In this document: one piece after another, positions 12,830 through 51,485 of the stretch
How the letters are laid out: every line of letters starts with the position of its first letter
Numbering within the stretch: position 1 is the stretch's first letter
Assembly: GCA_005223085.1 (NCBI GenBank)
Contig: NJBP01000003.1
Location: forward strand, 2,406 to 66,405
From: Candidatus Aerophobetes bacterium Ae_b3b
GTDB lineage: Bacteria; Aerophobota; Aerophobia; Aerophobales; AE-B3A
Direction: 5' to 3'
DNA: 64,000 nt
Position numbers and translations under genes: made by a program
Notes under the pieces: model-generated
Databases searched by the model: none
Seen by the model: the letters and a program-made list of their open reading frames with translations, nothing else
What the model was told of the DNA's origin: nothing

Positions 12830-15238
12830 ATGGCTTTGGAAAGTGGAATTGCTCCGCTTTATCTGGAAGAGGAAATGAAGACTTCTTACCTGAATTACGC
12901 TATGAGCGTAATTGTGGGTCGAGCCCTACCCGATGTCCGAGATGGACTAAAGCCGGTACAACGAAGGATTCTTTACGCCATGCAGGGATTGGGTTTACTT
13001 CCTAACAAGCCTTACAGAAAATCGGCTCGTCTGGTAGGGGAGGTTTTGGGAAAATACCATCCTCATGGAGATATGGCCGTCTATGAGGCTATGGTAAGAA
13101 TGGCTCAAGACTTTTCCCTGCGTCATCCTCTGGTTGACGGGCAGGGAAATTTTGGCTCTGTGGATGGGGACCCTCCGGCCGCTATGAGGTACACCGAGAT
13201 AAGACTCTCGCTCATAACCTCGGAAATCCTTGAGGATCTGGATAAGGATACAGTCGACTTTCTACCCAACTTTGACAATAGCCTGGAGGAGCCTCTTGTT
13301 CTACCAGCAAAAGTGCCTAATCTCTTACTAAATGGGAGCTCTGGAATAGCCGTGGGGATGGCCACCAATATCCCTCCTCATAATCTGAGTGAGGTGGTGG
13401 ATGCCTGTATCAGAATGATTGAGGATCCTCAAGTTTCTAGCGATGAGCTTTTAAAGATCATTCGAGGTCCAGATTTTCCCACAGCGGGGGTTATTATAGG
13501 GACGGAGGCGATTGAAAGAGCCTACCGGCACGGAAAGGCAAAGATAATCTTACAAGGAAAGGCCAATATTGAAACTACCCAGGACCGAGAAAGCATTATT
13601 ATTACTGAACTTCCCTATCAGGTCAATAAAGCAAAATTGATTGAGACTATTGCTGAGCTGTCTTCGAATAATAGAATAAAGGGGGTCAAGAATCTGCGGG
13701 ATGAATCGGACAGAAAGGGAATAAGGATTGCGATAGAGCTTTCCCGCAACACTAACGCTGAGGTCATTTTAAATCAACTTTATAAATATACCCCTCTTCG
13801 GACGACCTTTGGAGTTATTCTTTTAGCCATACTGGGTGGTAAGCCACGCCTTTTGAACCTGGTCGAGATGCTCCGGTGCTATCTTGATCATCGTAAAGAG
13901 GTAGTTACCCGACGGACAAAATTCCTTCTTTCCCGCGAGCAAAAAAAGGCTCACCTTTTGGAAGGACTCAAAAAGGCTCTGGGGAAACTGGATGAGGTAA
14001 TTAAGATTATAAGGTCGTCTTCCAATCCAGAAGAAGCCAGAAATCACCTGATAAAATTGTTAAGGCTAAGTGATGAGCAAGCCCGAGCGATTCTGGAGAT
14101 GAGGTTAGCTCGCTTGACCAGCCTGGAGAGGCATAAAGTGGACCAGGATTATGCCGAATCGGTAAAAATAATAGGTAGCTATGAGGAGATGCTGGCAAGG
14201 GAGCCCATGATTTGGGCAACCATTAAGGAAGAACTTGTCCAGATTAAGGAAAAATATGGAGAAGAGAGGCGTACCCGGATCAAGGCGGTAGTAAAAGAGT
14301 TAACCTTTAAACCAGAAGATTTGATCAAAAAAGAGGAGATCGTCGTTACTACCACCCGTCACGGCTATATAAAGTACACTTCCTTGAGAGCTTATAAGCG
14401 ACAAAGACGTGGGGGCAAGGGGATGAGCGGAATGATCACGGGAAAGGAAGATTTTGTAGAAGACCTTTTTATTACTCACACTCATTCTATCCTCTTATTT
14501 TTTACCAATTTAGGAAAGGTTCATTGGGCCAGAGCTTACGACATTCCTCAAAAGAAGCGGTCAGCTAAAGGTAGGGCGCTGGTTAACTTCCTCTCTATGG
14601 GAAAGAATGAGAGAGTGAGTAAAACTCTTCCTCTGGACAATTTTGACCAGGAAGGTTTTCTGGTTATGGTCACCAGGAAAGGGAAAGTAAAGAAAACCAG
14701 TCTTTCCGCTTATTCCCGTCCTAAAAAAGGAGGAATAAGGGGAATTCGTCTGCAGGAGGAAGATGAATTAATTAAAGTCCTGCCCACCCAAGGCGAAGAA
14801 AATATAGTCTTGGTCACCAGGAAAGGTAAGGCTATTCTTTTTTCTGAAAAAGATGTTCGTCCCACGGGAAGAACTTCACTAGGAGTAAAGGGGATTTCTT
14901 TAGGGGAAGAGGATGAGGTAATGGATGCCGTCATTGCCAAAGAGGATGAAGCTCTGCTCACCATTACCTCCAAAGGTTACGGGAAAAGAACTCTCTTTGC
15001 TAAGTACAGAAAAACCAGAAGAGGCGGCAAAGGAATCATTAACCTGCGTTTTGTTCCCCATAAGGGTGAGGTGGTGGGAGCAAAAAGAATAAAGAAGAGT
15101 GATGAGGTAATTGTTATCACCCGGAAGGGAAAGAGCATTCGCCTGGCAGCTAAAAATATCTCCCTTATTGGAAGAAATACCTCCGGTCCCCGCATAATCA
15201 GGTTAGGCCAAGATGACGAGGTTATTGCTCTGACATGA
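12830..15238 (+). CDS. gyrA: DNA gyrase subunit A
   Basis: GKYHPHGD, the AAMRYTE active-site Tyr region, and C-terminal beta-pinwheel repeats. 802 aa. Confidence 0.95.
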
Positions 15239-16158
15239 GAAAAATAGCTTTTCTTTTTCCCGGGCAGGGTTCTCAACACGTAGGAATGGGAAGAGGATTC
15301 ATTGATGGAAATTGTGGAGCTAAAAAAATCTTCCGGCAGGCCAGCAACGTCCTGGATTTTGATCTTGAGAAGCTATGTAATCATGGCCCGGAAGAAGAGC
15401 TGAAAAAGACCACTAATGCTCAGCCAGCTCTGTTGACAGTGAACTGGATCCTTACCAGAATTTTGAGAGAAAAGGGGATAGAGCCAAACGTGGTAGCCGG
15501 ACACAGTCTAGGAGAATACAGTGCGGTACTTTGCGCTAAGGTGGTTGACTATCCTGCTGCCTTAAGACTGGTTCGCCGAAGAGCCCAGTTTATGGAGGAG
15601 GCCTCGGCTGCCATAGATGGCGTGATGGCAGCCGTAATTGGACTACCCAGAGAGGCAGTTTTGTCAATTTGTCGGAGAATCAAAGGGGTAGAGGCGGTCA
15701 ACTTTAATTCTCCTTCTCAGGTAGTTATTGCTGGAAAAAAAAAAGCGGTAGAAATAGCAAGCAAAAGATTAGAGCAAGAGGGGTCAAAAAAGGTTATTCC
15801 CCTTTTGGTAAGTGGTCCCTTTCACACTTCCTTTATGAGACGCGCAGCTTTAAAATTCAGTCAAGAATTAGATAAAATTTCCTTCTCAGATCCTTGCTGT
15901 AAAGTTCTCACCAACGCCTTTGCCCGGTATGCCTTGAGTGCCGAGGAAATTAAAAAGGCCCTCCGTATGCAGATGGATCATCCCATTCTCTGGGAGGATT
16001 CTATGAGGAAACTGTTGTCTGAGGGAATCGATCTATTCGTTGAAGTAGGACCAGGAAAGGTTCTCAAAGGGCTCCTGCGAAGAATTGACGGGAGAGCATT
16101 GGTTTTAGGAATGGAAAGTCCCGAGGACCTAGAAAGAATCGAGCACTACTGTACCTAA
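15235..16158 (+). CDS. fabD: Malonyl-CoA:ACP transacylase
   Basis: FLFPGQGSQ and GHSLGEYSA (active-site Ser). Its ATG overlaps the gyrA stop (ATGA). Confidence 0.9.
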
Positions 16159-16217
16159 GCAGAAGTTCACAAAAAATTGCCCCCGGATGCCCCTACCCCT
16201 TGCAAGTGGGGAGGATG

Positions 16218-17492
16218 TCACTTCTTCATCATTTTTTCACTAACAACTGCAAATTTTGCTGGCCTTGGCCCATATGGTTCTTGCTTATATCTAACACCAC
16301 TGTTAATTAAATACTCAACTAAGTCTCCCATGTTTTCTGTAGTGCCTGCCATAACAAGTGGTTTCATAATTTCTTTTCTTAATTGTCCATCAGTTTTTAG
16401 CGCTTCAATAGTTTCCTTCCATGATTCATTATCCCTGCCCATGACCCTGATTCCTTTAACACTATTAAGGTTTAGCTCTTCGATTCCTGTCCTACCAGTT
16501 ACAAATGTGTGAATATCCATATTGGTACCGGGAATCATGACTTTCTTTCCTCCCGCAGGAAGACCATAATAAAATATCTTACCCCTCGGAGAAGCATACT
16601 CTATTACCATTTTTTGCAGTTTTTTCTGTCCGGTTAATTCAATACTTACAAATCCATCTTCTTGCCCAAGTTCTTCTTTTAACCGATTTAATTGTTGTTG
16701 ATCGTCAGAATTTACAAAGTAAAAGTTAGCATCTAAATCCATTACACATCTTTTCATATACATCATAGCTGATTTTCCTCTGTAAATTAAAACAAAATTC
16801 TTAACCCCCTTGCTGGCAAAGTATGGGACCATATACAGTGCCTGAGCACCACAACCACCCCATATAGCCAGAGTTTCAGGCACTCTACCACTTTTTTCGC
16901 TAACGATTCTTTCCATTTTGACGGTATTTCCAAGTGGCTCTGCAAATGAGGGAAAGAAATTGAACTTCTCTATGTCTTGTGTTGGTTTTGCACAGCATTG
17001 GTGGATAGAGACAAATTCGGCAAAAGCTCCATTTCTTAGCCAATCTTTTGGATTCCCAGATTTATACCAGCCGAGAAAACCCTCTTTTTGGCATCTATCA
17101 AATTTTCCCTCTAAACACGAGCTACACTGTAAACATGGGTAATGCTCCTCACCAACAACTGTCTGGCCAATAAGAGCCTTATTAACATTTTCACCAACAC
17201 CAACGATCCTTCCAGCAAATTCATGACCAAATACTGTCTTCTTTAAATCACCAGTTAAATCTACAAATTTGTTTGCATCAGAGGCACATATAGAAATCCA
17301 TAAAGGTTCTACTAAAACATCATCGGGTAGCATCTTTGGCAGGGGAACCTCTTCCAGAACAGTTTTTCCTCCCTTATAGGTAATCCATGCCTTCATTATT
17401 TCTGGGAGAGGATCCGGTATTTGATGTTTTGGCAATATAGATTTATAATCTGAGCCTATCGGTGTTAATTCTAATTTAGAAGTAGTTTTCAC
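16218..17492 (-). CDS. Zn-dependent MDR-family dehydrogenase, threonine-3-dehydrogenase-like but atypically long (424 aa)
   Basis: GHEFAGRIVGVG (catalytic Zn) and CLQCSSCLEGKFDRC (structural Zn). The GTG start overlaps the kbl stop (GTGA). An alternative start is Met33 (MKAWITYKG) at 17396. Pairing with kbl suggests threonine catabolism. Confidence 0.7.
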   Translation of the reverse strand: MKTTSKLELTPIGSDYKSILPKHQIPDPLPEIMKAWITYKGGKTVLEEVPLPKMLPDDVLVEPLWISICASDANKFVDLTGDLKKTVFGHEFAGRIVGVGENVNKALIGQTVVGEEHYPCLQCSSCLEGKFDRCQKEGFLGWYKSGNPKDWLRNGAFAEFVSIHQCCAKPTQDIEKFNFFPSFAEPLGNTVKMERIVSEKSGRVPETLAIWGGCGAQALYMVPYFASKGVKNFVLIYRGKSAMMYMKRCVMDLDANFYFVNSDDQQQLNRLKEELGQEDGFVSIELTGQKKLQKMVIEYASPRGKIFYYGLPAGGKKVMIPGTNMDIHTFVTGRTGIEELNLNSVKGIRVMGRDNESWKETIEALKTDGQLRKEIMKPLVMAGTTENMGDLVEYLINSGVRYKQEPYGPRPAKFAVVSEKMMKK

Positions 17493-18730
17493 TCCAAAAT
17501 GCCTTCTTTTTTTCCTGTCTCTTGGAATGACTTCAGTGCATAATCAAGATCGTGCCTCGTATGTGAAGCTAATATCTGAACTCTTATAGTATCTTGACCT
17601 CTGGGAACAACAGGATAAGTTAAAGCTACCACATAGATTCCTCTTTGATATAAGTCAAAGACCATTTGCTTAGCCTTAATTGCATCGCCAATTAAAATAG
17701 GAACTATGGGATGAATCCCTTCAATTGTTTTAAAACCAATCTGATTTATTCCCTTTCTAAAATATTCAGTATTTTCTCTTAATCTCTCCAATAATCTTAA
17801 TCCTTCATGGCTATCTAAAATCTCCAATGCTTTTAATGCAGCACCTGCCACTCCCGATCCTATTGGATTTGAATACACATATAAAGGAGAAGTCTCTCTT
17901 AAATACTCAATAACCTTTTCATTGGATACAATAAAACCGCCGTCTACCCCCAAGCCCTTTCCTAATGTTGCGGTTATTATATCAATCCTATCTTCCTGGG
18001 TAACCTCTCCAGTGCCCCTTCCGGTTTTCCCATAAGCTCCTATTCCGTGTGAGTCATCTACAACTGTTATAATTCCCTCTTCAAATTTTGGATCGTACTC
18101 CTCGGCCAAACAAGCTATATAGTGCAGGGGAGCATAATCTCCTCTCATACTAAATACACCATCGGTCACTATAATTAATCTTTTCCCATTACCCACAGAT
18201 TCATCTATGCACTTTCTGAGCTTGTCCATGTCACAGTGAGCATAAATTTTTTTCCTATCTCTGGGAACTCCAGCAAATCTTATGGCCATAATTATACTGT
18301 TATGATTTAACTCATCGCTTATAATATAGGTATCCTTATCCACTAATGGAGCAATAATTCCGCAATTAGCAGCATAAGCAGAACTAAATATCATAGCAGC
18401 CTCTGTTTTATAAAACTCTGCTAGTTTTTTCTCTAATTCAATATGAGGCTCTTGTGTCCCGGAGATAAACCTGACCGCACCTGGACCAACTCCAAACTTT
18501 AAATCTGCTTCATGTGCAGCTTTGATTAATCTTGGGTCATTAGAAATACCTAGGTAACTGTTGGAGGCAAAATTTAAGAGAGTGCGCTGGTCACTCATAA
18601 CTATTTTTCTACCAAATCCATCTCCAGGAGGCACTATATCAACGATGACTTTTTCTTTCCCCTTCAGTCTACCTTCCTTCTCTAATAGTTTTAACTTTGC
18701 ATCTAAAACAGATGTTAATTTATCAAGCAT
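17489..18730 (-). CDS. kbl: 2-amino-3-ketobutyrate CoA ligase (glycine C-acetyltransferase), alpha-oxoamine synthase family
   Basis: SNSYLG, DDSHGIG and the ATLGKGLG PLP-Lys region. 413 aa. GGAGAG RBS. Confidence 0.8.
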   Translation of the reverse strand: MLDKLTSVLDAKLKLLEKEGRLKGKEKVIVDIVPPGDGFGRKIVMSDQRTLLNFASNSYLGISNDPRLIKAAHEADLKFGVGPGAVRFISGTQEPHIELEKKLAEFYKTEAAMIFSSAYAANCGIIAPLVDKDTYIISDELNHNSIIMAIRFAGVPRDRKKIYAHCDMDKLRKCIDESVGNGKRLIIVTDGVFSMRGDYAPLHYIACLAEEYDPKFEEGIITVVDDSHGIGAYGKTGRGTGEVTQEDRIDIITATLGKGLGVDGGFIVSNEKVIEYLRETSPLYVYSNPIGSGVAGAALKALEILDSHEGLRLLERLRENTEYFRKGINQIGFKTIEGIHPIVPILIGDAIKAKQMVFDLYQRGIYVVALTYPVVPRGQDTIRVQILASHTRHDLDYALKSFQETGKKEGILE

Positions 18731-18991
18731 TTTTATCTCTCCGATATTTCATTGATGCTGTCATCAGGGCCTTGTTGTAGTTATCTCTCATCGACGGAGG
18801 TAAAAGCGGACTGATGACTTCCCACTGCCTGTCTGTAAATCACTTCTGGCCACCCTCCTATCTTATCCAACTTTTGAAGCTACTTCTAGTATTTCTTCGC
18901 CTCTTCCTTGTCATCTATTAGCTTCATCAGCTGTGCCAACTTCATGGCAGCACTGTATCTCTACTCTCCCTCCCTGGTTAACCATCAAAAG

Positions 18992-19861
18992 CTATCTAGA
19001 ACAAAGTATCTTTCTCATTCGCTTTGGAAACTTAAGAGCGTTCCCAGTGATTATACAGACCACTATATCATTTTCCTCTAGATCTACGTGTTTTAAGGCA
19101 GCGGCTGAGGCGGCAGAAGCTGGCTCTGATAATATACCTTGCTTAGCTAGGGAAATAGTTTCCTCAACAAGCTCTTTGTCTGAAACAGAGACAAATTGCC
19201 CACCAGAATCATTTACAGCATTCGATATCTTAGGTTCCTCCAACCGGTAAAATCCATGAATACTGTCCGCAATTTTGGTGAATTGTGAGGTAGCAGCTAT
19301 CATGCGCGGCGAAACCCCAGCTCTCTTCAATCCTTCCCAGACTCCGACAAGGTGAGTCCCATTGTTGGTAGGGCAGACTACGACATCCGGTGAGAACGGC
19401 GCAATTTCCCTTCCAATATAGGCATTGCCTACGATCTTGGCTTGGCAATACCCAGCATTTGCATTGTAGTATCCATGTTTTTCAGCGGCCTCGATTACCT
19501 TCTGTGTTGCAGCCATATAGTCGCCCTCAACTATTTCGATTTCGGGTTTGAAGATTCTGATGAGATCCAACTTTTCTTTACTGACATTGCTGCCAACAAA
19601 TATCTTTGCTTTCAATTCATTCATGTACATAAAGGCTGATAGCGATAAGGCGGCGTTGCCGGAACTAGCACAAACAGCAGTGCCATAGCCTTTCTCAATC
19701 ATCTCTAAAACAACCATGGCACTACCTCTGTCCTTGTGTGTACCTGTGGGGTTTACCGCCTCGAGTTTGGCGAAGACATTAGCCCCATACCTCTCTCTCC
19801 CTTTGGGAATCTTGACTAAGGGGGTATTCCATGTTGGCTCCTGTAGCTTATAACTTATCAT
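18992..19861 (-). CDS. Short threonine-synthase-like, fold-type II PLP enzyme
   Basis: NPTGTHKDRGS is the Lys motif; the canonical ThrC form is NPTGSFKDRG. About 289 aa, much shorter than canonical ThrC. I prefer the ATG at 19861 (GAGGTGG RBS 5 nt upstream) over the GTG at 19870 in the ORF track. Confidence 0.6.
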   Translation of the reverse strand: MISYKLQEPTWNTPLVKIPKGRERYGANVFAKLEAVNPTGTHKDRGSAMVVLEMIEKGYGTAVCASSGNAALSLSAFMYMNELKAKIFVGSNVSKEKLDLIRIFKPEIEIVEGDYMAATQKVIEAAEKHGYYNANAGYCQAKIVGNAYIGREIAPFSPDVVVCPTNNGTHLVGVWEGLKRAGVSPRMIAATSQFTKIADSIHGFYRLEEPKISNAVNDSGGQFVSVSDKELVEETISLAKQGILSEPASAASAAALKHVDLEENDIVVCIITGNALKFPKRMRKILCSR

Positions 19862-19879
19862 TCCATCCACCTCAAAGGT

Positions 19880-20722
19880 TCAGTACTCAAGTTTCATCCG
19901 AACGCTCTCACCAAGCATGAACATGGCTTGAAAAGCTTTGAAGAGCTCCAAGAAGTCGCTGGAAGTCAAAGACACTGTCGTACCACTCTTTCTTTCTGTG
20001 CCAGGGATTAGAGAGGCTGCATCCGCCATGTTCGTCATAAAGAAATCCACTTCTATGATCGTTGGGGTGTTGTAAACGAGCGGTGACATATCTTTTATTC
20101 TCCTTACTGCCATTCTGGCCATTTTTTTGATCACTTCGTTTGCCTTTGATAGAGGCAAACACTTTGCGGAGGTCATATTTATAGCCTTCTTTATGACAGC
20201 TACTTCGACTGTACCAAGCTGAGACTTTGCCTCCTCGGCTACGACGTTGTCACCTACTACTAGGGTGGTAGGCACGTTGAAATATCCGGCAATACCTGCA
20301 CTGACGCCGAGTTCTCCAACCGATTTACCATTGAGTCTGACGTCTCTTATACTCAGAGGGCAAAAAGAATGGTTCAAAACACCAGGGTGTGAGCCCATTT
20401 TCGCGTGGTAGCCTATGAGGAATGCGGCATCAAAGGTCTCATCAACTCCCTCCATCATGCATAGGGGTTTAGGTTGACCAGTTACGAGCTCGACGTTCTC
20501 GTCGTCGAACCTGTCGATCAAGAGGTTCCTCATCGTGTTGTGCGAATCGTTTATAACAAACTCCGTAGCATTTGCCTCTTTGGCCCCTTTGATTGCGGCG
20601 TTTACGTGTTCACACATAATGTGTCTGTCCCTGCCCCACTCTCCTGGATCAGCATTCTTTGAAAATTCCCAGTGTGTCTTACCAGCTCTGCCTTCCATAT
20701 CTGCTGAAATAAATACTTTCAT
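19880..20722 (-). CDS. dppA: D-aminopeptidase DppA (peptidase family M55)
   Basis: MKVFISADMEG.. N-terminus with NDSHN and GYHA motifs. The start at 20722 follows a GGGAGGA RBS; the ORF-track start at 20749 adds 9 unsupported codons. Confidence 0.8.
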   Translation of the reverse strand: MKVFISADMEGRAGKTHWEFSKNADPGEWGRDRHIMCEHVNAAIKGAKEANATEFVINDSHNTMRNLLIDRFDDENVELVTGQPKPLCMMEGVDETFDAAFLIGYHAKMGSHPGVLNHSFCPLSIRDVRLNGKSVGELGVSAGIAGYFNVPTTLVVGDNVVAEEAKSQLGTVEVAVIKKAINMTSAKCLPLSKANEVIKKMARMAVRRIKDMSPLVYNTPTIIEVDFFMTNMADAASLIPGTERKSGTTVSLTSSDFLELFKAFQAMFMLGESVRMKLEY

Positions 20723-20746
20723 TTTTAATCCTCCCAGGGTCTTGCC

Positions 20747-21002
20747 CAAGTTTGTGGCAAAGTTATAGAATTAATGTAAGATTCTGTTTCATCTTCCGCT
20801 CTTTGAAAATAGCTCATCACAAGATGAGGCCTAAAAGATTTGGAACAAGCTATACCTTGAAGGCTGACACAAGAAAAATGGCCATCTTAAAAAGACGTCA
20901 CGCTATTTATGAGTGTCCCTATGTGTGAGTATCTGTTTACCTAGAATTTTCGCTCAAATTAGCATTTGACAACGAAAAGGACGAGCAATTGCCACAAACT
21001 TG
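20747..21002. repeat. 256-bp non-coding element bounded by perfect 14-bp inverted repeats (CAAGTTTGTGGCAA ... TTGCCACAAACTTG)
   Basis: Read directly. IR-L is 20747-20760 and IR-R is 20989-21002. It lies in the ABC ATPase-dppA gap. No obvious target-site duplication. Confidence 0.6.
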
Positions 21003-21034
21003 AGTAAATTTCCTCCTGCCCTTTTTTTAGATTA

Positions 21035-22075
21035 TCAGCTATACAAGAAGCAGGATACAAGATGTCCTTTATCTGGACCGATTAGCTTGGGCTCTTCTTT
21101 ACTACACCTACTAAATGAAAACGGGCACCTCGTATGGAATCTGCATCCTGCTGGTGGATCAATAGGGGAAGGAACCTCCCCGGTAAGCTCTATTCTATCG
21201 ATTCTGTAAACTTCGCTTAGCAGTGGGCTGGATGAGGCTAATGACTTGGTGTAAGGATGGAGGCACTTTTGAAAAAGCTCCTTAGTTGGTGCCAACTCCA
21301 CCAGTTTACCCAAATACATGACACCAACAGTGTCCGAAACGTGACGTATCACAGAAAGGTCGTGTGCAATGAAGAGATAAGTTAAATCCCTTTTGTTCTG
21401 CAATTCCATAAGGAGATTCAGTATTTGCGCTTGTATGGATGTATCCAGAGCGGTTACTGGCTCATCCAGCACGATGAATTTAGGTTCTGTCGCTAATGCG
21501 CGGGCTATTGCGGCCCTCTGCCGCTGTCCTCCACTTAGTGCTTTTGGTTTTTTCGTGTAAAATACCTCGCTGAGCCCGACCTGGCCAAGTAAGTCTAGGC
21601 AATATTCTTTTATCATGTCCCTCTTGACGATTTCATGATGATTGATCACCTCCTTTAACATATTTCCAATTATCTTGTGTGGAGGCAAAGTCGAGTAGGG
21701 ATTTTGAAATACGACTTGCACCTCCTTTCTAAGCTTTTTGAGCTGCCTATCTGCTAAAGAACGGATGTTCTGCCCGAAAACTCGAATGTTACCAGCAGTA
21801 ATTGATTCGAGTCTAAGAACACACCTGCCTAAGGTCGACTTTCCGCAACCGCTCTCACCTACGAGTCCAAATGTCTCGCCTCTCCTTATGTCCAGGGAGA
21901 TATCGTCTACAGCTTTAACATACTTCTGTTCCCTCACAAGGATTTTGTCGATAAAACCCTTTCTCAGCACATAGTACTTTTTCAGATGGCCGATTTCTAT
22001 AACTGTCTCATTTCGGGAGATTTCTTTCATTTTGTTCTTGTGGTCCGAGACTATATCTACATCCAACGTCAGCAC
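21035..22075 (-). CDS. Dpp/Opp-type peptide ABC transporter ATPase (OppF-like)
   Basis: Walker A GESGCGKST, signature LSGGQRQR, Walker B VLDEP, and the C-terminal oligopeptide-transporter Cys motif region (GCRFHTRCP). Confidence 0.85.
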   Translation of the reverse strand: MLTLDVDIVSDHKNKMKEISRNETVIEIGHLKKYYVLRKGFIDKILVREQKYVKAVDDISLDIRRGETFGLVGESGCGKSTLGRCVLRLESITAGNIRVFGQNIRSLADRQLKKLRKEVQVVFQNPYSTLPPHKIIGNMLKEVINHHEIVKRDMIKEYCLDLLGQVGLSEVFYTKKPKALSGGQRQRAAIARALATEPKFIVLDEPVTALDTSIQAQILNLLMELQNKRDLTYLFIAHDLSVIRHVSDTVGVMYLGKLVELAPTKELFQKCLHPYTKSLASSSPLLSEVYRIDRIELTGEVPSPIDPPAGCRFHTRCPFSFSRCSKEEPKLIGPDKGHLVSCFLYS

Positions 22076-23079
22076 ACCCCCTGAAAACCGTGGTTCTTAG
22101 ACCGCGATAGTCTCTTGGCATCTTCTGGTTTTATGCAACGAATACTGTGATTTTCATCGATTTTTCTAAGTTCTATACTTTCTTGGAGGCAGCCTTCATC
22201 CCCTATTGGACACCGAGGGTAAAATTTGCATCCTTGGTGAGGAATTTCACTGAGCTCGCCCATTATAGTTGGAATCTTACCCTTAGGTTCGTAGTATATT
22301 ACGTTGGATCTAAGCAATCCGAATGTATAGGAGTGCAAGGGGTTTTCGAAAACGGTTTTCACCGTCCCCTGTTCCATTAATGTGCCAGCATACATTACAT
22401 TCACATAGTCACATATGCGCTTGATGACTCCGAGATCGTGCGTTATCCACAGCACCGAAACACCTATCTCACCTATGAGTTCCTCGAACTCATTCAAAAT
22501 CTGGTTTGCGATAGTTACATCTAGAGCTGTTGTCGGCTCATCCGCGATGATCAGTGACGGCTCGCAGCTCATTGCCATAGCGATCGTCACTCTTTGAATC
22601 ATCCCACCGCTGAGTTCGTGAGGATAGTTGTCAAAACGTTTTTCCGGGTCCGAGATCCTAACTTTCCTGAATAGATCTATTGCCTTCGTCTTTGCCTCCT
22701 TCTGTCCAATATCTTGGTGGAGCTTCAAAACACTAGTAATCTGTTCTCCAACGGTAAACAGTGGATTGAGCGATACCATTGGATCCTGAAAGATCATCGA
22801 GATCTCATTCCCCCTGATTTTGAACTGCATCTCCTTCTCGCTTAATTCCCTTATATTTATACCTTTAAAAATTATCCCACCGGACACGATTCTACCTGTT
22901 TCCGGCAGGATCCTAAGGAGCGAGTTGGCAATTGTGGTCTTGCCACTTCCCGACTCACCTACGAGGCCAACTACCTCCCTTTCTCTTATCGAAAGGTCGG
23001 CACCATCCACCGCCTTGACGATTGCCCCGTTTCCCTCAAAGTACGTGTGGAGGTCCTTTATTTCTAGTAAATTCATCAT
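22069..23079 (-). CDS. Dpp/Opp-type peptide ABC transporter ATPase (OppD-like)
   Basis: GESGSGKTT, LSGGMIQR, IADEPTTALD, and C-terminal GCKFYPRCP. Confidence 0.85.
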   Translation of the reverse strand: MMNLLEIKDLHTYFEGNGAIVKAVDGADLSIREREVVGLVGESGSGKTTIANSLLRILPETGRIVSGGIIFKGINIRELSEKEMQFKIRGNEISMIFQDPMVSLNPLFTVGEQITSVLKLHQDIGQKEAKTKAIDLFRKVRISDPEKRFDNYPHELSGGMIQRVTIAMAMSCEPSLIIADEPTTALDVTIANQILNEFEELIGEIGVSVLWITHDLGVIKRICDYVNVMYAGTLMEQGTVKTVFENPLHSYTFGLLRSNVIYYEPKGKIPTIMGELSEIPHQGCKFYPRCPIGDEGCLQESIELRKIDENHSIRCIKPEDAKRLSRSKNHGFQGVC

Positions 23080-23975
23080 TATTTCTCCAACATGTCTCGC
23101 AGGCCATCGCCGATCAGGCTAAAACCTATCACGGTATACATGATCCCAAGTGCTGGAAAAGTAGCAATCCACCAACCCACCTGCAGCAACTGCCTCCCTT
23201 CGGCTATCTGCGCCCCCCACTCAGGAATTGGGGGTTGTGCACCAACGCCAACAAAACTGAGGGAAGCTGCAACTAATATAACGAGTGCACAGTCAAGCGA
23301 AGCGTAAACAATGGTCGGCGCGATGGAGTTCGGCATCAAATGCCCGAATATTATTCTTTTGTCCGAAAAACCAACAGCTTCAGCTGCTCTGACATAATCC
23401 TCTTCCTTTTCTGAGAGGTACCTACTTCTAACAATCCTAGCATACTGACACCAACTTACAATAGCAATAGCAAAATACAAGTTTTTGAGACCGGGACCGA
23501 AGATAGCCATGATGGCAATGACAAGTACCAGAAAAGGAAAAGCCATAATCGAGTCAACAATGCGCATGATTATGGTATCGATCCAACCCTCGTAATAACC
23601 GGAAAGTGCTCCTGCTAAGTTGCCTACGATGAAGGCGATTCCGACACCGATTACGCAGATTTTCACTGCTATCCAGGCGCCGTGGATCACCCTTGACATT
23701 ACATCTCTCCCATACAGATCCGTGCCAAATAGGTGGCTAAGCCCTGGTGGTTCAAGGCTCTCAGTTAGGACCTGTTGGTACGGATCGTAAGGAGCGATGA
23801 AAGGCGCGAATATTCCTACCAGGGTTAATATACCGATCATTATCAGGCCGATTCTGCTATTAGGATTTCTGATAATTTTCTTTACTGTCTCCCATCTCGC
23901 GATGTTTTCATCGCCGAAGAGAAGGTTAATGGAACGAGATATTACACTGCCTGCATTCCTGTTATTCACTCTCAA
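23079..23975 (-). CDS. Dpp/Opp-type ABC permease (DppC/OppC-like)
   Basis: Multi-TM protein with an N-terminal OppC-type segment and an EAA-like loop (AAEAVGFSDKRIIFGHLMPN). Confidence 0.8.
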   Translation of the reverse strand: MRVNNRNAGSVISRSINLLFGDENIARWETVKKIIRNPNSRIGLIMIGILTLVGIFAPFIAPYDPYQQVLTESLEPPGLSHLFGTDLYGRDVMSRVIHGAWIAVKICVIGVGIAFIVGNLAGALSGYYEGWIDTIIMRIVDSIMAFPFLVLVIAIMAIFGPGLKNLYFAIAIVSWCQYARIVRSRYLSEKEEDYVRAAEAVGFSDKRIIFGHLMPNSIAPTIVYASLDCALVILVAASLSFVGVGAQPPIPEWGAQIAEGRQLLQVGWWIATFPALGIMYTVIGFSLIGDGLRDMLEK

Positions 23976-24913
23976 CTCCTGTAGATCCGTGGGTCTATTA
24001 ATCCATAAATGATGTCAACGATGTAGTTGTTTAACATTATTGCTAATGCAAATACAAGACTAATGCCCTGTATCAAGGGATAGTCCCTTACTATCACGGC
24101 ATCTAATAACATCGCCCCTATCCCAGGTAGAGAGAATACTGTTTCGATCACCACCGACGATCCGAGGAGCCACCCTAAGTTCAAACCAAGAACGGTAATA
24201 GTAGGCAAAAGCGCATTCTTGAGGACATACTTCAGATAAATTGTCCTGTCCGAGAAGCCATACGTCCTTGCTGTTCGTATATACTCTTTTTGCAAAACCT
24301 CGATCATATCTGACCTAAGAGTTCTCGTAACAAGAGCAGTCAGAAACAGTCCGAGGATGAAACTGGGGAGAAATAGGTGATATATGTTATCTAGCAGACC
24401 TGACCCCCATCCCCTAGTGGGGAACCAACCCAATCGGAGGGCGAAGATATTGAGGAATAGAAGACCCGTCCAGAATTCCGGCATCGAGAAGACGAAAAGT
24501 GACGAGATTCGCGCCACATAATCGGGGAACTTGCCACGGTGTTTCGTCGCCCATAAGCTGAGCGGAAGCGAAATGATAACGCAAAATACTGCTGACATAA
24601 AAACCAGCGAGAGCGTCACTCTTAACCTTGAAAAAATCAACTCAGTAATTGGAGCCTTATAGCGAATTGATGTTCCCAGGCTTCCACGTGCAAGCTGTGT
24701 GAGAAACACGTAAAACTGCTTGTGTAGTGGCTCATTGAGACCGAGACTCTTCCTCAGTTGCTCGAGGCGCTCCGGTGTAGCCATGATACCAAGTATATTC
24801 TTGGCTGGATCACCAGGTATGAAATGCAGCATAAGGAATACTATAAACAAAACAATGAATAAAACGGGTATCATTTCGAGAAATCTTCTTAGAGCATATC
24901 GTTCAAGAGACAT
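23972..24913 (-). CDS. Dpp/Opp-type ABC permease (DppB/OppB-like)
   Basis: IPGDPA N-terminal motif and an EAA loop (YIRTARTYGFSDRTIYLKYVLKNA). 313 aa. Confidence 0.8.
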   Translation of the reverse strand: MSLERYALRRFLEMIPVLFIVLFIVFLMLHFIPGDPAKNILGIMATPERLEQLRKSLGLNEPLHKQFYVFLTQLARGSLGTSIRYKAPITELIFSRLRVTLSLVFMSAVFCVIISLPLSLWATKHRGKFPDYVARISSLFVFSMPEFWTGLLFLNIFALRLGWFPTRGWGSGLLDNIYHLFLPSFILGLFLTALVTRTLRSDMIEVLQKEYIRTARTYGFSDRTIYLKYVLKNALLPTITVLGLNLGWLLGSSVVIETVFSLPGIGAMLLDAVIVRDYPLIQGISLVFALAIMLNNYIVDIIYGLIDPRIYRS

Positions 24914-25003
24914 AGGAGGTCACCCTAAGGTAAGCCGTTCATTGATATTTGGAACCATGGTACCTTGGGAGGAACCCACGGCACCATGGTTCTCGGGAAT
25001 ATT

Positions 25004-26527: not shown

Positions 26528-26650
26528 TTTTTATCTCCTTTGGTTAAATTATAAAGTGTTACTCTACTTATTCTTCTTTCGAACCTTGTCATCTATCACC
26601 CCCTTCAGAAGGTACTCTACATTTCATTCTCATCTATCACCCCCCTTGCT

Positions 26651-26860
26651 CTACTCTCCAATCTCCTTAATCCAACTATTGAAACCGTTACCGACCTTCG
26701 TCTCAATTACCCCGACAATTTGGAGAACGCATAAAGCTTCCCCAATAACTGGCCGACCTACCTCAGTCAAACTGGCAATACGATTTTCGGAGGGTAACTT
26801 ATTACCCTTTCTATATTCCTCTTCCCTGATCGACTGGAGGACTTGCCCTGCTATTTCCAT
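26651..26860 (-). CDS. GntR-type winged-HTH domain only (effector domain missing; truncated regulator)
   Basis: LPSENRIASLTEVGRPVIGEALCVLQIVGVIETKVGNG matches the GntR wHTH, and the ORF stops immediately after it. The ORF-track start at 26941 lies at or above the predicted TSS, so Met28 (26860) is preferred. Confidence 0.5.
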   Translation of the reverse strand: MEIAGQVLQSIREEEYRKGNKLPSENRIASLTEVGRPVIGEALCVLQIVGVIETKVGNGFNSWIKEIGE

Positions 26861-26943
26861 AGCTTTTCTCTTCCCGGTTTCCTGAACTTTCTTGAAGGTT
26901 GCTTCCAACCTCCAATACAAATCTGAATATCTGTAGCACAAGC

Positions 26944-26972
26944 ACTATACCACCATTCTCGAAATTTGTCAA
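26944..26972 (-). promoter_or_regulatory. Near-consensus sigma-70-type promoter (TTGACA-17-TATAGT) reading into GntR' and the dpp operon
   Basis: Reverse complement of 26967-26972 is TTGACA, and of 26944-26949 is TATAGT. The spacer is 17 nt. The -35 coincides with the left edge of repeat R. Confidence 0.5.
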
Positions 26973-27112
26973 TTCTTTTGGCTATAATGATACTGCCCAC
27001 TTTCTATTAGATTTTAGAGAGTTCGGAAAAGCTTTTATTTTATTTCAAAAGCGAAGGGAGTTATCTACCAAATCACTATTTTTCACATTATTTTTCAGAA
27101 CGTTATCCCCAA
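26966..27112. repeat. Repeat R, copy 1 (about 147 bp; intergenic sequence downstream of the lplA-like gene, includes the promoter -35)
   Basis: Aligns with 50808-50950 at roughly 80% identity by eye, with one ~11-nt indel (ttcttttggctaYaatgatact ... attagattttagaga ... ggaacgttatccccaa). Confidence 0.75.
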
Positions 27113-27559: not shown

Positions 27560-27756
27560 AGGCTAGCTCGCTTGACCAGCCTGGAGAGGCATAAAGTGGA
27601 CCAGGATTATGCCGAATCGGTAAAAAAAATAGGAAAGCTAGAGGAGATGCTGGTAAAGGAGCCCCTGATTTGGGCAACCATTAAGGAAGAACTTGTCCAG
27701 ATTAAGCAAAAATATGGAGAAGAGAGGCGTACCCGGATTAAGACCGTAGTAAAGGA
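27560..27756 (+). pseudogene. gyrA internal fragment (copy of nt 14102-14298)
   Basis: About 93% nucleotide identity by hand count (~14 mismatches, no indel). It is still in frame: [61 protein letters not shown]. Confidence 0.9.
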
Positions 27757-28021: not shown

Positions 28022-28044
28022 CTTCTATCCTCCAACGCCATCCG

Positions 28045-34556: not shown

Positions 34557-34635
34557 GAGATTGCTTCGCTGGCAATGGGATTCACTAAGTATTTACCCTT
34601 CCTCCCAGTTCAGTTGGCGCAGTCTCCGCATTGGT

Positions 34636-42869: not shown

Positions 42870-43916
42870 TTAATGACCGCAGGCTTTTGCTAACTCTACT
42901 AAATCCGGATGTACAACTTCACCTTCTTCAGTTAGGGGCTCCTCATCACATGATACCGAACACGCCAAACATATGCCGTCTATGTGGGAAGCTGCCACCC
43001 TAGGTTTACCACCCGAATACATTGGGCCCTGATACCCAAAACCCCATTCCGTACTTCCCCATATCCTTTCATCCTCCGTAGCAGTGTACCCGAGCTTTGC
43101 ATTTGGATTAAAACCGTAACAAACATGTGCCACTAAGTACATAGTGGGATCGTTTAATTTTTCAAACCATTTTTTAACAATTTCCGCCTCCTTTCCACCT
43201 CGTATTTCTTTTATTCTTCCCTTTTTAACTTCGTATATAACTGGCTTTGAGACCACCCCTATATCTGCTTTACCACCACCTGAAATAGCACCATCAAAGA
43301 CTAGTGTTCCATTGATAGTTTCTTCTCTAGGCGCCCATCCAATCTGTCCTGTTAGAAAATGTCCCCCCGGTTTGTCAGCAATGTGCTCGTCAGCAAAAGG
43401 GCGATGGGGATCATTTTCAAATTCTATGTTTGTCCCCGCAGCATTAACAATCTTCATTTTTTTTGCACGCTTTGTTATCTCAACAACTTTTTCCTGAAAG
43501 GCTATTTGAGCTTCAATATCTACTTCTCCTATACAGCGAATCAACTGATCGGTTGATAAACCTCCAAGCATAAGATTTCGAGTACGGCCGTTTGTTACCG
43601 CCCGTTCCCAGGGTGTACTATATAGTAACCATTGGTTATTAAGTTCTATCCACGCATCTGCTTCAGGACATGCTGCTATAAGCGGAGCAGGCAAATATGG
43701 GTCAGTTGCCTTTCCATACCCCTTTGGTGTGGAATGCCAAGCCACCATCACCTTGGCACCAAGTGCCTCTCCCGCTTTGGCCATTTCCTCTGCCACCCTG
43801 AAGTCACTGATAGAGTCAATAGTAATGAGGAGATTTTCACCTTCTTTTACTCTAATGATTTCCTTAACTGTTTTATAGGCCGCTTTGAATAGTTCCAGAT
43901 CACTTATGGTTGGCAT
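42870..43916 (-). CDS. M29 (aminopeptidase T) / NicX-like superfamily protein, paralog 1
   Basis: 348 aa. The overall pattern resembles the thermophilic-metalloprotease / 2,5-dihydroxypyridine-dioxygenase fold (GQIGWAPRE, EDERIWGSTEWGFGYQGP, ASHIDGIC). Family assignment is from memory, not a search. Confidence 0.5.
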   Translation of the reverse strand: MPTISDLELFKAAYKTVKEIIRVKEGENLLITIDSISDFRVAEEMAKAGEALGAKVMVAWHSTPKGYGKATDPYLPAPLIAACPEADAWIELNNQWLLYSTPWERAVTNGRTRNLMLGGLSTDQLIRCIGEVDIEAQIAFQEKVVEITKRAKKMKIVNAAGTNIEFENDPHRPFADEHIADKPGGHFLTGQIGWAPREETINGTLVFDGAISGGGKADIGVVSKPVIYEVKKGRIKEIRGGKEAEIVKKWFEKLNDPTMYLVAHVCYGFNPNAKLGYTATEDERIWGSTEWGFGYQGPMYSGGKPRVAASHIDGICLACSVSCDEEPLTEEGEVVHPDLVELAKACGH

Positions 43917-48973: not shown

Positions 48974-50017
48974 CTATTTTCCCATTGCCTGTGCAATTTC
49001 GCTTAGTTCAGGATGCACTACTTTCCCTTCTTTGAGTAACAACTCATCATCTACCCATACAGTAGAATTCAAGCATATCCCGTCAGCATGAGATACAGCA
49101 TCTCCCAGACTACCTTCAAACATGGGTCCCTGATAACCATTTCCCCATTCAGTAGATCCCCATACACGTTCATCCTCAGTACATAACCCTGTGAGTATTG
49201 CTCCCGGATTGAACCCGTAACATATATGAGCCAAATTATACATATTCGGATCACCGAGCTTTTTCAGCCAATTACTCATCTTTTTGGCTTCATCCTGACC
49301 CTTAACTTCAACAATTCTCCCTTCTTTTATGGTCAATTCAATCGGATGAGCAAGGATTCCGAGATCAGCTTCCCCGCCACCAGAAAATGATCCATCAAAT
49401 ACTATAACCCCATTAATACTTTCTTCACGAGGGGCCCATCCAATCTGGCCTACCAGAAAATGTGGTCCCGGTACATCTGCTCGCAGCTCATTGGTAATGG
49501 GGCGCTCGTGCACATTCTCAAAAGAAACGTCAGTACCTGCTGGTGTCGTAACACGCATCTTGGAAGCTTTTTTCGTGAGCTCGACCACCTTATTCTGAAA
49601 TTTTTCTTGCAAATCCATATCAAGTTTGGCAATACATCTGGTAATGCGTTCTGGATCTAATCCTCCTAGAAAAAGGTACCGCGTTCTCTCGTTGGACATC
49701 GCTTCTATCCACGGAGTGGAATATAGGAGCCACTGGTTATTGAATTCTATCCATACATCTGCTGCTGGTATGGCTTTTTTAAGAGATTCCGGTAACTGCG
49801 GATCAGCCACTTTGCCATAACCATTGGGCGTTGTATGCCACGCTACCATTACTTTCCCGCCAGCAGCTTCAGCTGCCTTGGCAACTTCTACTACTGGTTT
49901 AAAATACATTGCTGAATCTACTGTTAGTATTACGGATTCTCCTTTTTTGATTCTACACATTTCATGAGCTACTATATAGCTCGCTTTTCCTAATTCTAAT
50001 TCAAACCTCTCTGGCAT
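48974..50017 (-). CDS. M29 / NicX-like superfamily protein, paralog 2
   Basis: 347 aa. It is colinear with 42870-43916 and by eye more than half of positions are identical (KVMVAWH.TP.GYGK, NNQWLLYSTPW, GQIGWAPRE, EDER.WGSTEWG.GYQGPM). Confidence 0.5.
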   Translation of the reverse strand: MPERFELELGKASYIVAHEMCRIKKGESVILTVDSAMYFKPVVEVAKAAEAAGGKVMVAWHTTPNGYGKVADPQLPESLKKAIPAADVWIEFNNQWLLYSTPWIEAMSNERTRYLFLGGLDPERITRCIAKLDMDLQEKFQNKVVELTKKASKMRVTTPAGTDVSFENVHERPITNELRADVPGPHFLVGQIGWAPREESINGVIVFDGSFSGGGEADLGILAHPIELTIKEGRIVEVKGQDEAKKMSNWLKKLGDPNMYNLAHICYGFNPGAILTGLCTEDERVWGSTEWGNGYQGPMFEGSLGDAVSHADGICLNSTVWVDDELLLKEGKVVHPELSEIAQAMGK

Positions 50018-50037: not shown

Positions 50038-50739
50038 TTAAAGCATTTCTTTCTCTGAGGGCGCCTCATACGCAATTGTGCTCGTCTTAAGACCCATACT
50101 CACATATATTTCTGCCAACCTCAATGAGGCCACTGCCGGATCAACTACCGGTACTCCTAATTTCTGTTGTAATTTTTTTGCTAAAGATGACATGCCGGTA
50201 CACCCAAGAACGATACCTTCCGTCCCATCGTTTTCTATAGCTATTTTAGCTTCTGCCAAGATAGCCTTAAATGCCTTTTCCTCATCTTTTAGGTCCAATA
50301 CAGGAATATTAGCAAACCGTACCGAGGCCACCCTGCTTCCAAAACCATACTTGTTTATGTTTTCTCTGATTTCATCGGCAGTACTTTTTAATACGGTGAC
50401 TACCGAAAACTTCCTGCACAATCCGAGAGCCAGAAGATAGCTCGCTTCACCTGCACTGGTGACAGGTATTGTAACTGCTTCGCGGCAGGCTCTTACAACA
50501 GTATCCATGGCACAATCTAAACTTACCGCATCATAACCTTCTTTCTCTGCCTTTTTGACTTCTTCGATAATATATGGGGCTGCAAGAGCCTCATCATATG
50601 CTGATTCAATAGATACTGGTCCATGACTTAAACATACAACTTCTACTTCATTTCCAGGTGAGGCTGCCTTTCTTCGCTCTTCAACTTGGCTATCTCTAAA
50701 TTTAATCGATGAGTTTGGTATTACTATCTTAACTCTCAT
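50038..50739 (-). CDS. Asp/Glu/hydantoin racemase family protein, copy 2
   Basis: GPVSIES, Cys regions LDCAMD and LGCTGM, and PVVDPA. It is distantly related to copy 1, roughly a third of positions by eye. Confidence 0.7.
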   Translation of the reverse strand: MRVKIVIPNSSIKFRDSQVEERRKAASPGNEVEVVCLSHGPVSIESAYDEALAAPYIIEEVKKAEKEGYDAVSLDCAMDTVVRACREAVTIPVTSAGEASYLLALGLCRKFSVVTVLKSTADEIRENINKYGFGSRVASVRFANIPVLDLKDEEKAFKAILAEAKIAIENDGTEGIVLGCTGMSSLAKKLQQKLGVPVVDPAVASLRLAEIYVSMGLKTSTIAYEAPSEKEML

Positions 50740-50786: not shown

Positions 50787-50814
50787 ATAGTAGAACATAT
50801 GTATAATCTGTCAA
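50787..50814 (-). promoter_or_regulatory. Candidate promoter (TTGACA-16-TACTAT) reading into racemase-2 and the long co-directional array
   Basis: Reverse complement of 50809-50814 is TTGACA, and of 50787-50792 is TACTAT. The -35 again coincides with the left edge of repeat R (copy 2). Confidence 0.4.
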
Positions 50815-50950
50815 GAAAAAAATTCTTTTGGCTACAATGATACTATTGACTTTTTATTAGATTTTAGAGAACTCCGAAAAACTCCTATTTGATTTTAAAA
50901 GTGGAGGGAACCATCTGCCAAATTACTATTTTTCGGAACGTTATCCCCAA
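50808..50950. repeat. Repeat R, copy 2
   Basis: See copy 1 at 26966-27112. Confidence 0.75.
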
Positions 50951-51006
50951 CTTCCCACTGTTTCTGTAAATTCCATGAAGGTAGGAAATTCACGGGTAGA
51001 GCAAGC
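50934..51006 (-). pseudogene. Second remnant of the lplA-like gene, with ~290-bp internal deletion and 5' truncation
   Basis: 50934-50950 matches 27096-27112. 50958-51006 matches about 27403-27465 (ggaaattca..ggtagagcaagc). The sequence between these matches in copy 1 is absent here. Confidence 0.6.
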
Positions 51007-51402
51007 AAAAGATTAGAGCAAGAGGGGGCAAAAAAGGTTATTCCCCTTCCGGTAAGTGGTCCCTTTCACACCTCCTTTATGAGACGCGCAGCTTTAAAAT
51101 TCAGTCAAGAATTAGATCGCATCGCTTTCTCTGATCCCTGCTGCAAAGTTCTCACCAATGCCTTTGCCCGCTATGCCTTAAGCGGCGAAGAAATTAAAAG
51201 CGCCCTTCGGATGCAGATGGATCATCCCGTTCTCTGGGAGGATTCTATGAGGAAACTACTCACTGATGGAATCGATCTATTCATTGAAGTAGGACCAGGA
51301 GAGGTTCTCAAGGGGCTCCTGCGAAGAATTGACAGGAGAGCATCGGTTTTGGGAATGGAAAATTCCGAGGATCTAGAGAGAATTGAGGACTACGGTAGCT
51401 AA
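51000..51402 (+). pseudogene. fabD 3' fragment (copy of nt 15756-16158, up to and including the stop codon)
   Basis: 403 nt against 403 nt with no indel. About 88% identity by hand count over the last 327 nt (~40 mismatches). It is in frame throughout (..[54 protein letters not shown]..). About 18 of ~34 altered codons are synonymous. Confidence 0.9.
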
Positions 51403-51448
51403 ATTTTATTTACAATTTGGGATTAAAGTAGACTAAAAAGGAGCCTTC

Positions 51449-51485
51449 CCAGGGTATTTAGCTTATGTCAGGCTAAATACCCTGG
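51449..51485. terminator. Perfect 14-bp stem-loop (CCAGGGTATTTAGC-9 nt-GCTAAATACCCTGG) between the convergent fabD' fragment and potD
   Basis: Read directly. No long U-tract on either side, so it is a hairpin of uncertain terminator efficiency. Confidence 0.45.

Follow-up and report, generated by a model that had tools for sequence, protein, structure and literature searches.

Downstream of fabD in Candidatus Aerophobetes bacterium Ae_b3b, cargo modules stand in series, separated by orphan pieces of gyrA, kbl, fabD and lplA. The stretch analyzed here (the window) comprises 64,000 nucleotides (nt) of contig NJBP01000003.1, and all positions refer to it unless another contig or locus is named; it holds two transport and catabolic islands, termed island 1 and island 2, and a further module, module D, beyond a conserved gyrB-gyrA-fabD block. 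Direct repeats of gene pieces lie between these modules, short microhomologies mark the junctions, a related contig carries island 2 with neither island 1 nor scars, both seams between modules recur in other assemblies, and mobile-element genes are absent from the window. The reading we favor, to which we give about an even chance, is the serial additive joining of allelic versions of one variable zone, each addition made by one homologous and one illegitimate join and then trimmed by deletion.

Self-blastn of the window, together with a repeat search, returned five direct repeat pairs and no inverted repeats. Read from the left, the order is S1 (within gyrA), S3 (the 3′ end of fabD), S5 (the 5′ end of kbl), island 1, R-lplA′, S1′-S5′, island 2, R′-lplA″, S3′ and a hairpin (Table 1). 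This is the order that a first-pass annotation of the sequence had proposed, and all five pairs lie where it had placed them. The S3/S3′ repeat stops at the fabD stop codon. R, which has no Rfam match, lies about 200 nt downstream of lplA in intact alleles, as read in L091 (designations of this form are our numbers for loci in related genomes and contigs).

The three orphan gene pieces, from gyrA, kbl and fabD, are all in frame and free of stops. S3 and S3′ differ at 43 positions, 23 of them third codon positions, with a synonymous divergence (dS) of 0.29 and a nonsynonymous to synonymous ratio (dN/dS) of 0.26. S1′ is nearer to the gyrA of L002 (95.6–96.6%), one of three close relatives (L001–L003) obtained in a fabD-based scan of species-representative genomes, than to the gyrA of its own genome (91.7–92.7%). 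Together, the open frames, the low dN/dS and the affinity of S1′ suggest that the scars derive from functional alleles of related lineages, and not from decay in place. No abrupt recombination breakpoint emerged at 15756 within the intact fabD when the window was compared with L002 and L001 in a sliding identity profile, which therefore gives no evidence as to which half of that gene came from a donor. The truncated open reading frame (ORF) of lplA′, a member of the LplA/LipB family, spans 27095–27550 and is 89% identical in nt to the intact lplA of L091; about 300 nt are missing at its 3′ end, in this genome only, through a deletion between TTGGG repeats. The second remnant, lplA″, is an internal piece rather than a shortened copy of lplA′. 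The trimming deletions in general lie between short direct repeats.

An arrangement with island 2 alone between kbl and lplA, which the first-pass annotation had suggested looking for in relatives, is present in the Joint Genome Institute (JGI) contig Ga0315544_1000602 (32.6 kb; loci L089 and L091). This contig carries accA-gyrB-gyrA-fabD at 95.9% identity to the window, followed by tdh, an intact kbl (94.6%), island 2 (95–98.5%), R′, about 290 nt of further sequence and an lplA without the deletions, at which point the contig ends; island 1 is absent, as are the gyrA and fabD scars. It has an intact kbl at the position where the window has S5′, and the 5′ end of that kbl is 90.3% identical to S5′, against an average of 98.5% for the island. 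Three other loci (L099, L103 and L105) read intact gcvPB-lplA-R′-racemase, which is island 2 joined to the intact operon, and in L001 the fabD region continues at window position 41218, inside island 2, a jump indicating that L001 is a deletion derivative of the fabD-tdh-kbl-island 2 arrangement. The counterpart haplotypes, island 1 alone between kbl and lplA (intact lplA-R-GntR-dpp), which had also been proposed as something to look for, and module D alone (full fabD-ATTTTATTTACAATTT-hairpin-solute-binding protein [SBP] gene), were not found among 19 lplA, 80 fabD and 8 SBP loci.

Both seams recur outside the window. The inner seam (lplA′/gyrA′/kbl′) has the same breakpoints in three other contigs: Ga0115863_1002215 (98.4–98.8% identical to window 17309–37624), Ga0309839_1110046 (94–97% to the window) and Ga0209986_10004284 (98.4–99.6% to the window), the first and last of which also carry island 1 together with the inner seam at 98.4–98.8%. 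In all three, lplA′ and R are separated by about 295 nt of sequence that is missing from the window, where a deletion between short direct repeats has removed it. The outer seam (lplA″/fabD′) is present in at least seven other contigs, in two states of erosion. In Ga0114919_10102281 it is base for base as in the window; six more contigs, from other samples, read module D-hairpin-ATTTTATTT-fabD scar-R′-island 2, with a 385-nt secondary deletion that leaves 123 nt of fabD. Their recurrence in metagenomes assembled independently means that the seams are no artefacts of assembly. Both are real and old.

Module D is probably a third stacked cargo, ending in an intact lplA a few kilobases beyond the right end of the window. 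We base this expectation on L107 and L118. L107 reads gcvPB, an intact lplA (243 aa), three genes, an FGGY kinase, a SIS gene and a 267-nt fabD scar, and its kinase is 98.9% identical in nt to window 62406–64000; L118 has these three genes and the kinase again, and there they run, with the remainder of module D, into the outer seam. The three modules have in common just distant paralogues (63–71% nt by self-blastn). The earlier claim that this genome carries two alternative cargo alleles in series thus stands with respect to the series, given the independent recurrence of the seams, and needs revision with respect to the number, which is probably three.

The slot between the kbl start codon and R-lplA is variable, as the first-pass annotation had claimed: Ga0315544_1000602 lacks island 1, and directly upstream of kbl at least six different genes are found across relatives. 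The tdh-kbl cassette itself is conserved at 84–95% nt in all relatives (84–87% in the more distant ones), and its homology ends at the tdh stop on one side and 12–19 nt upstream of the kbl ATG on the other. On the fabD side, identity to the window over gyrB-fabD is 95.9% for L002 and L089, 91.3% for L001 and 87.6% for L003 (nt), and past the fabD stop L001–L003 split from the window and from one another within about 10–70 nt, with different genes in each. Immediately after the fabD stop L001–L003 carry the 9-nt ATTTTATTT, which also follows the orphan S3′; the intact fabD of the window is not followed by it. After ATTTTATTT, L001 and L002 continue with approximately 50–70 nt that correspond to the spacer between fabD and tdh and to the 3′-terminal codons of a tdh variant encoding 441 aa.

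The other border of the zone was examined with a metagenome scan that used the lplA of L091 and returned 19 loci. In every locus with upstream sequence (16 lplA loci, L107 included), lplA is preceded by gcvH-gcvPA-gcvPB. The lplA framework of the first-pass annotation is in reality the 3′ end of a gcvH-gcvPA-gcvPB-lplA operon. In the more distant relatives L087 (1775–12014) and L088, kbl-tdh-SHMT/gcvT-gcvH-gcvPA-gcvPB-lplA forms a single operon, with a kbl-tdh about 85% identical in nt to that of the window; the clade of the window has a circular permutation of this order, namely gcv-lplA, cargo, kbl-tdh. The permutation suggests that the variable zone sits inside what was formerly a single threonine/glycine catabolic operon.

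Serial additive joining, as we envisage it, would proceed as follows. In this Aerophobetes lineage the DNA flanked by the conserved gyrB-gyrA-fabD block on one side and by the conserved gcvH-gcvPA-gcvPB-lplA operon on the other is a hypervariable zone, with different modules for peptide, amino-acid and sugar transport and catabolism in different strains. The usual mode of change would be a swap of modules by homologous recombination in both conserved flanks, a suggestion made because the flank edges are hypervariable. On at least two occasions, however, the zone allele of a related lineage would have been added rather than swapped in, through homologous recombination in a conserved flank at one end and an illegitimate join at a short microhomology at the other, and after each such event the truncated right flank of one allele (R and a portion of lplA) would abut the next allele at its truncated left flank (a portion of gyrA or fabD). 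A later microhomology deletion may have removed about 4.2 kb, from the gyrA 3′ end through the 3′ part of kbl, and further deletions would have shortened lplA″ by about 600 nt, lplA′ by about 300 nt in this genome and the outer scar by 385 nt in other strains. This would leave island 1 followed by island 2 and probably by module D, with gyrA, fabD, tdh and kbl intact in their outermost copies only, and presumably an intact outermost lplA as well. We infer the direction and order of these events, the donor lineages and the form of the substrate (linear, circle or sister chromosome).

Several other explanations deserve to be weighed. The window comes from a short-read metagenome-assembled genome (MAG), and a related scaffold with a 281-N gap and overlapping flanks in fabD indicates that assemblers struggle here, so one might suspect a chimera of co-occurring strains whose seams exist in no cell. 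An assembler could not, however, invent non-homologous seams from shared k-mers, and several assemblies of other samples show each seam with exactly the same bases; we consider a chimera very improbable. Much the same holds for site-specific, integrase-mediated insertion of an island at the fabD 3′ or kbl 5′ end, with the repeats as att sites. Such an insertion would leave direct repeats flanking the insert and the left fabD intact, as do islands that target the 3′ ends of genes, but no integrase, recombinase, transposase or tRNA lies in 14–52 kb. In the window as a whole, none of the 58 ORFs (308–63990) is a recombinase gene by Pfam, tRNA/tmRNA and Rfam scans gave no match, and Pfam likewise revealed no integrase that might serve an integron-type array, attC structure not having been searched separately. 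The candidate att repeats are 200–400 nt long at 89–93% identity and are not short exact cores; over the window, repeat lengths of 114–403 nt at 82–93% identity do not match att-type cores. Nor are the breakpoints fixed. Downstream of lplA they vary among haplotypes, the lplA loci splitting from each other 0–300 nt past the stop at no fewer than five different points, which argues against a site-specific mechanism, and the fabD scar of L107 begins at 15901 whereas that of the window begins at 15756. With nothing integrase-like in the window and microhomology at the junctions, we agree with the first-pass annotation that the pattern does not resemble integrase-mediated insertion, which is highly unlikely here.

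A circle is harder to set aside. The first-pass annotation envisaged a gyrA- or fabD-to-lplA segment that circularized or duplicated in tandem and then recombined back through shared homology, in two rounds. As a circle, the segment would be excised, closed by the illegitimate lplA/gyrA or lplA/fabD junction, and would re-enter a chromosome by a single crossover of the Campbell type, twice, with an inner deletion afterward. The topology fits exactly, with S3/S3′ flanking 35 kb and S5/S5′ flanking island 1-R-lplA′-S1′; the junctions show the microhomology that illegitimate circularization would give, and the circle requires no more and no fewer steps than the linear model. On the other hand, replication, mobilization and recombinase genes are absent from the flanked DNA (Pfam), no circular-form contig occurs among 45 loci of the clade, and the product is indistinguishable from that of one-sided homologous plus illegitimate integration, so that specific support is wanting. 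Tandem duplication or triplication in place, by unequal sister exchange at microhomologies with later cargo replacement and gene deletion, also predicts the end of one unit joined to the start of the next. Mosaic identity profiles point to frequent allelic replacement, and transformation-stimulated merodiploidy is documented in S. pneumoniae (PMC3784515). Yet this route demands more steps (duplication, full replacement of the cargo in each copy, deletions), the units share no cargo beyond the distant paralogues, S1′ is closer to the gyrA of L002 than to the resident gene, and known merodiploids use long pre-existing repeats, whereas none exist here and no insertion sequence (IS) lies in 14–52 kb. 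Linear integration with one anchor, a circle with a single crossover and unequal exchange would all yield the same product, and sequence comparison cannot separate these routes. We prefer the linear donor because it is more general, requires no episome (none was seen) and matches the sequential-displacement model (PMC5361080). Nothing singles out the circle with re-entry, which we hold to be possible but doubtful, and duplication in place seems to us unlikely.

Loci subject to exchange have hypervariable flanks, as in the case of gnd beside the O-antigen rfb cluster in E. coli. The present locus resembles gnd/rfb in that polymorphism is much higher at the gene edges abutting the variable zone than elsewhere in the conserved block, and differs in that orphan copies of the edges also exist and join in the exchange. 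In experiments on homology-facilitated illegitimate recombination (HFIR), the inserts usually measure about a kilobase and often come with a deletion of recipient DNA. The inserts we propose here are instead 8–35 kb, allelic rather than foreign, and duplicate part of the flank, and one junction has an unusually long microhomology (17/19 nt). The likeness lies in the combination of one homologous anchor with one illegitimate join at microhomology, by which foreign DNA is trapped beside conserved sequence. Such recombination is reported from experiments with Acinetobacter baylyi (de Vries and Wackernagel 2002), Streptococcus pneumoniae (Prudhomme et al. 2002) and Pseudomonas stutzeri (Meier and Wackernagel 2003), all as cited in PMC5361080, and also from E. 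coli conjugation (PMC3240628).

The closest natural parallel may be the effector-immunity modules of the type VI secretion system (T6SS) in V. cholerae, which undergo sequential displacement, and the Rhs C-terminal displacement arrays cited alongside them (Kirchberger et al. 2017, PMC5361080). As in those arrays, a conserved anchor adjoins the variable module: here gyrB-gyrA-fabD at 88–96% nt (L001–L003 and L089) and gcvH-gcvPA-gcvPB-lplA in 16 loci. There, too, a new module is added while the old one is kept and pushed along with a remnant of the anchor-proximal gene; in the window, island 2 retains kbl 5′ and gyrA pieces and module D a fabD 3′ piece. Repeated rounds produce arrays in both cases, without an integrase, and in the T6SS/Rhs system homologous replacement on both sides is considered the more frequent result (PMC5361080). 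The differences are equally plain. Catabolic and transport islands of 8–23 kb take the place of toxin-immunity pairs here, housekeeping genes from both flanks (gyrA, fabD, kbl and lplA) have supplied the scars, and there is no obvious selective reason, such as retained immunity, for keeping a displaced module. The transformation-triggered tandem duplications of S. pneumoniae, or merodiploids (Johnston et al. 2013, PMC3784515), share with our locus the joining of unit end to unit start and a series of copies that allows every gene to keep one intact version. They arise, however, by unequal crossover between long existing repeats (IS861 remnants) and consist of identical copies of 100–900 kb (PMC3784515), while the copies here carry different cargo and have microhomology junctions. 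We conclude that this case is a natural member of a known recombination class in a little-studied phylum and represents no new mechanism.

A number of points weigh against serial additive joining. With the island-1-only and module-D-only haplotypes missing, two of the three presumed donor alleles are unsampled. Only the window's own MAG contig carries three modules on one molecule, since the other contigs each span a single seam. In so mosaic a population the allele affinities of scars are weak evidence of donors, and S3′ and S5′ have themselves been overwritten. The model alone does not account for the position at which the two left-hand alleles break off, in both cases inside lplA and no more than 92 nt apart, and this uncultured organism is not known to take up DNA.

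That overwriting also bears on the age of the events. The unequal divergence of the repeat pairs (about 93% against about 88%) had been taken as a sign of separate events or donors, a deduction that does not survive comparison with relatives, because the fabD 3′ and kbl 5′ ends are hypervariable in all pairs and scars with the same junction differ by about 10%. The last 403 nt of fabD stand at 85–93% identity in every lineage pair, including the window and L002 (96% overall); for the gene edges generally the values are 85–93% (fabD 3′) and 84–97% (kbl 5′), against about 96% for the block. The S3′ scars of the window and L117 have identical junctions and flanks of 98–100%, yet are only 88.8% identical to each other, with a dS of 0.287 and a dN/dS of 0.28, in the range of functional alleles; both orphan fabD fragments are still ORFs. 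When the window is set against three other contigs, the differences cluster at 27842–27979, within S5′. It follows that scars and zone-adjacent gene edges have been overwritten repeatedly by recombination with other alleles, and their divergence cannot date the events. The 11% divergence of same-junction fabD fragments, their dN/dS of 0.28 and their open frames would be explained either by repeated conversion from functional alleles or by selection on the fragments. One might go further and regard the fabD-to-lplA zone as a standing integrase-free locus for stacking cargo, in which the orphan fragments (fabD 3′, kbl 5′ and R-lplA) are not inert but maintained as homology handles for adding, swapping, reordering or removing entire catabolic modules; we consider this rather improbable.

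Anchor-assisted illegitimate integration is well characterized in the laboratory, but clear natural examples are scarce and mostly concern toxin-immunity or Rhs arrays. Here the same logic appears to act on large metabolic islands in an uncultured sediment phylum, and public metagenomes yield the haplotype that preceded stacking, the product of stacking and scars at successive stages of erosion. There is a practical warning as well: orphan fragments beside variable loci keep recombining, which makes them useless for dating, and they break or mis-scaffold short-read assemblies. If stacking is recurrent, it would offer slow-growing subsurface bacteria a route to transport and catabolic capacity without mobile elements.

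Table 1. Repeat pairs, genes, scars, junctions and predicted elements of the window, with gene names assigned by Pfam; identities are between the members of a pair unless stated otherwise
Feature	Position	Strand	Description
fabD 3′ pair S3/S3′	15756–16158 vs 51000–51402		89.3%, 403 nt, ungapped, E 1e-151
kbl 5′ pair S5/S5′ + 12 nt upstream	18464–18742 vs 27755–28033		92.5%, E 1e-112
gyrA internal pair S1/S1′	14102–14306 vs 27560–27763		92.7%, E 2e-79
R/R′ pair	26971–27084 vs 50821–50934		81.6% (self-blastn)
lplA internal pair	27411–27467 vs 50960–51016		82.5% (self-blastn)
gyrA, intact	12830–15238	+	Pfam DNA_topoisoIV, DNA_gyraseA_C; conserved left flank of the variable zone
S1	14102–14306	+	gyrA segment with orphan copy S1′
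fabD, intact	15235–16158	+	Pfam Acyl_transf_1; final conserved gene before the variable zone
S3	15756–16158	+	fabD 3′ segment with orphan copy S3′
tdh	16218–17492	-	zinc-ADH-type, 424 aa; Pfam ADH_N
kbl, intact	17489–18730	-	Pfam Aminotran_1_2
S5	18464–18742	-	kbl 5′ end with orphan copy S5′
Island 1	18743–26970	-	PALP enzyme, M55 D-aminopeptidase, DppFDCBA-type ABC transporter, GntR fragment (Pfam)
Predicted sigma-70-like promoter	26944–26972	-	directly after R, facing island 1; TTGACA-17-TATAGT, 11/12 positions, with TG; consensus match only
R	26971–27112	-	84–89% over 142 nt to copies in L099, L103, L117
lplA′	27095–27559	-	without 5′ end (cut at gyrA junction); Pfam LplA-B_cat profile positions 50–152/200
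lplA/gyrA junction			microhomology about 3 nt, possibly a few nt of filler
S1′	27560–27763	+	orphan gyrA fragment; in frame, no stop
gyrA/kbl junction			microhomology 2–4 nt
S5′	27755–28033	-	orphan kbl 5′ end, still joined to island 2; in frame, no stop
Island 2	28034–50820	-	22.8 kb; 95–98.5% to Ga0315544_1000602; Pfam gene content in text
Predicted sigma-70-like promoter	50787–50814	-	directly after R′, facing island 2; TTGACA-16-TACTAT, 10/12 positions; consensus match only
R′	50821–50950	-	second copy of R
lplA″	50951–51016	-	57-nt internal lplA remnant after deletion of about 600 nt
lplA/fabD junction			19-nt stretch, 17/19 positions matching
S3′	51000–51411	+	orphan fabD 3′ end + 9 nt ATTTTATTT; 134 in-frame codons, stop codon kept
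Hairpin	51449–51485		14-bp stem, -29.7 kcal/mol, z = -4.9; between fabD scar and convergent SBP gene
Module D	51579–64000	-	Pot-like ABC system, SDR, sugar-type ABC system, amidohydrolase, PGDH-like protein, FGGY kinase (Pfam)

By Pfam, gyrB, gyrA and fabD are read from the + strand, and the genes from tdh, kbl and island 1 onward from the - strand. The switch in gene orientation coincides with a sign change in GC skew at the convergent fabD/tdh boundary, near 16000, which could reflect a replication terminus or merely coding-strand composition. The tdh of the window resembles in length that of distant relatives and lies 59 nt from fabD, with a window-specific stretch of 68 nt (16159–16226); in L089 and L097, by contrast, tdh has 441 aa with a different C-terminus, and the spacer carries ATTTTATTT and an element resembling a miniature inverted-repeat transposable element (MITE). 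The fabD/tdh boundary of the window is another local replacement. The fabD gap mentioned above belongs to Ga0115863_1002215 (L097 13328–13613); window 15614–15791 is present on both sides of it, at 91.9% and 97.9% identity, and it was probably the additional copy of fabD that misled the assembler.

On the cargo side, island 2 encodes two Asp/Glu racemases, a Pot-like ABC system, S-Me-THD, an Opp/Dpp-type ABC system, a nitroreductase-like protein, an M20 peptidase, two NicX-like proteins (so labeled via their homologues) and a Liv-type ABC system. A racemase gene lies at each end of the island (28045–28767 and 50038–50739), and the NicX-like paralogues, at 42870–43916 and 48974–50017, are about 66% identical in nt. 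The GntR-family gene at the lplA side of island 1 (26651–26941) encodes a helix-turn-helix (HTH) domain only, of 85–96 aa, and the same HTH-only stub is found in every related contig seen. Within island 2 lies a MITE-like element of 177 nt (34424–34596) with terminal inverted repeats GTAAATATTCAGTGA...TCACTGAATATTTAC, the single copy in the window; an extra copy stands between fabD and tdh in L089 and L097 (both at 12595–12771), with an 8-bp flanking duplication, TTATTTTC. In L122 (1258–7019) and L120 (464–1924), which come from other samples, reverse transcriptases of group II introns and a DDE transposase interrupt the ABC ATPase gene of module D; the window has none of these insertions. As a possible third instance of an lplA...GntR...PALP...kbl framework we considered L081–L083 and dropped them, their LplA being just 25% and their PALP 27% identical at the protein level.

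The hairpin beyond the outer seam is identical in L117 and L118 and is probably a terminator, judging from its predicted fold; a terminator pattern scan did not call it, and no run of T lies beside the stem. Finally, a 622-nt sequence, Z, is 98.9% identical between L106 (2519–3140) and L107 (7032–7653). In L106 it starts 18 nt past the lplA stop, and in L107 it adjoins the fabD scar that begins at fabD position 15901. At the Z/fabD junction of L107, a fabD 3′ piece has thus entered the zone a third time, independently of the other joins.

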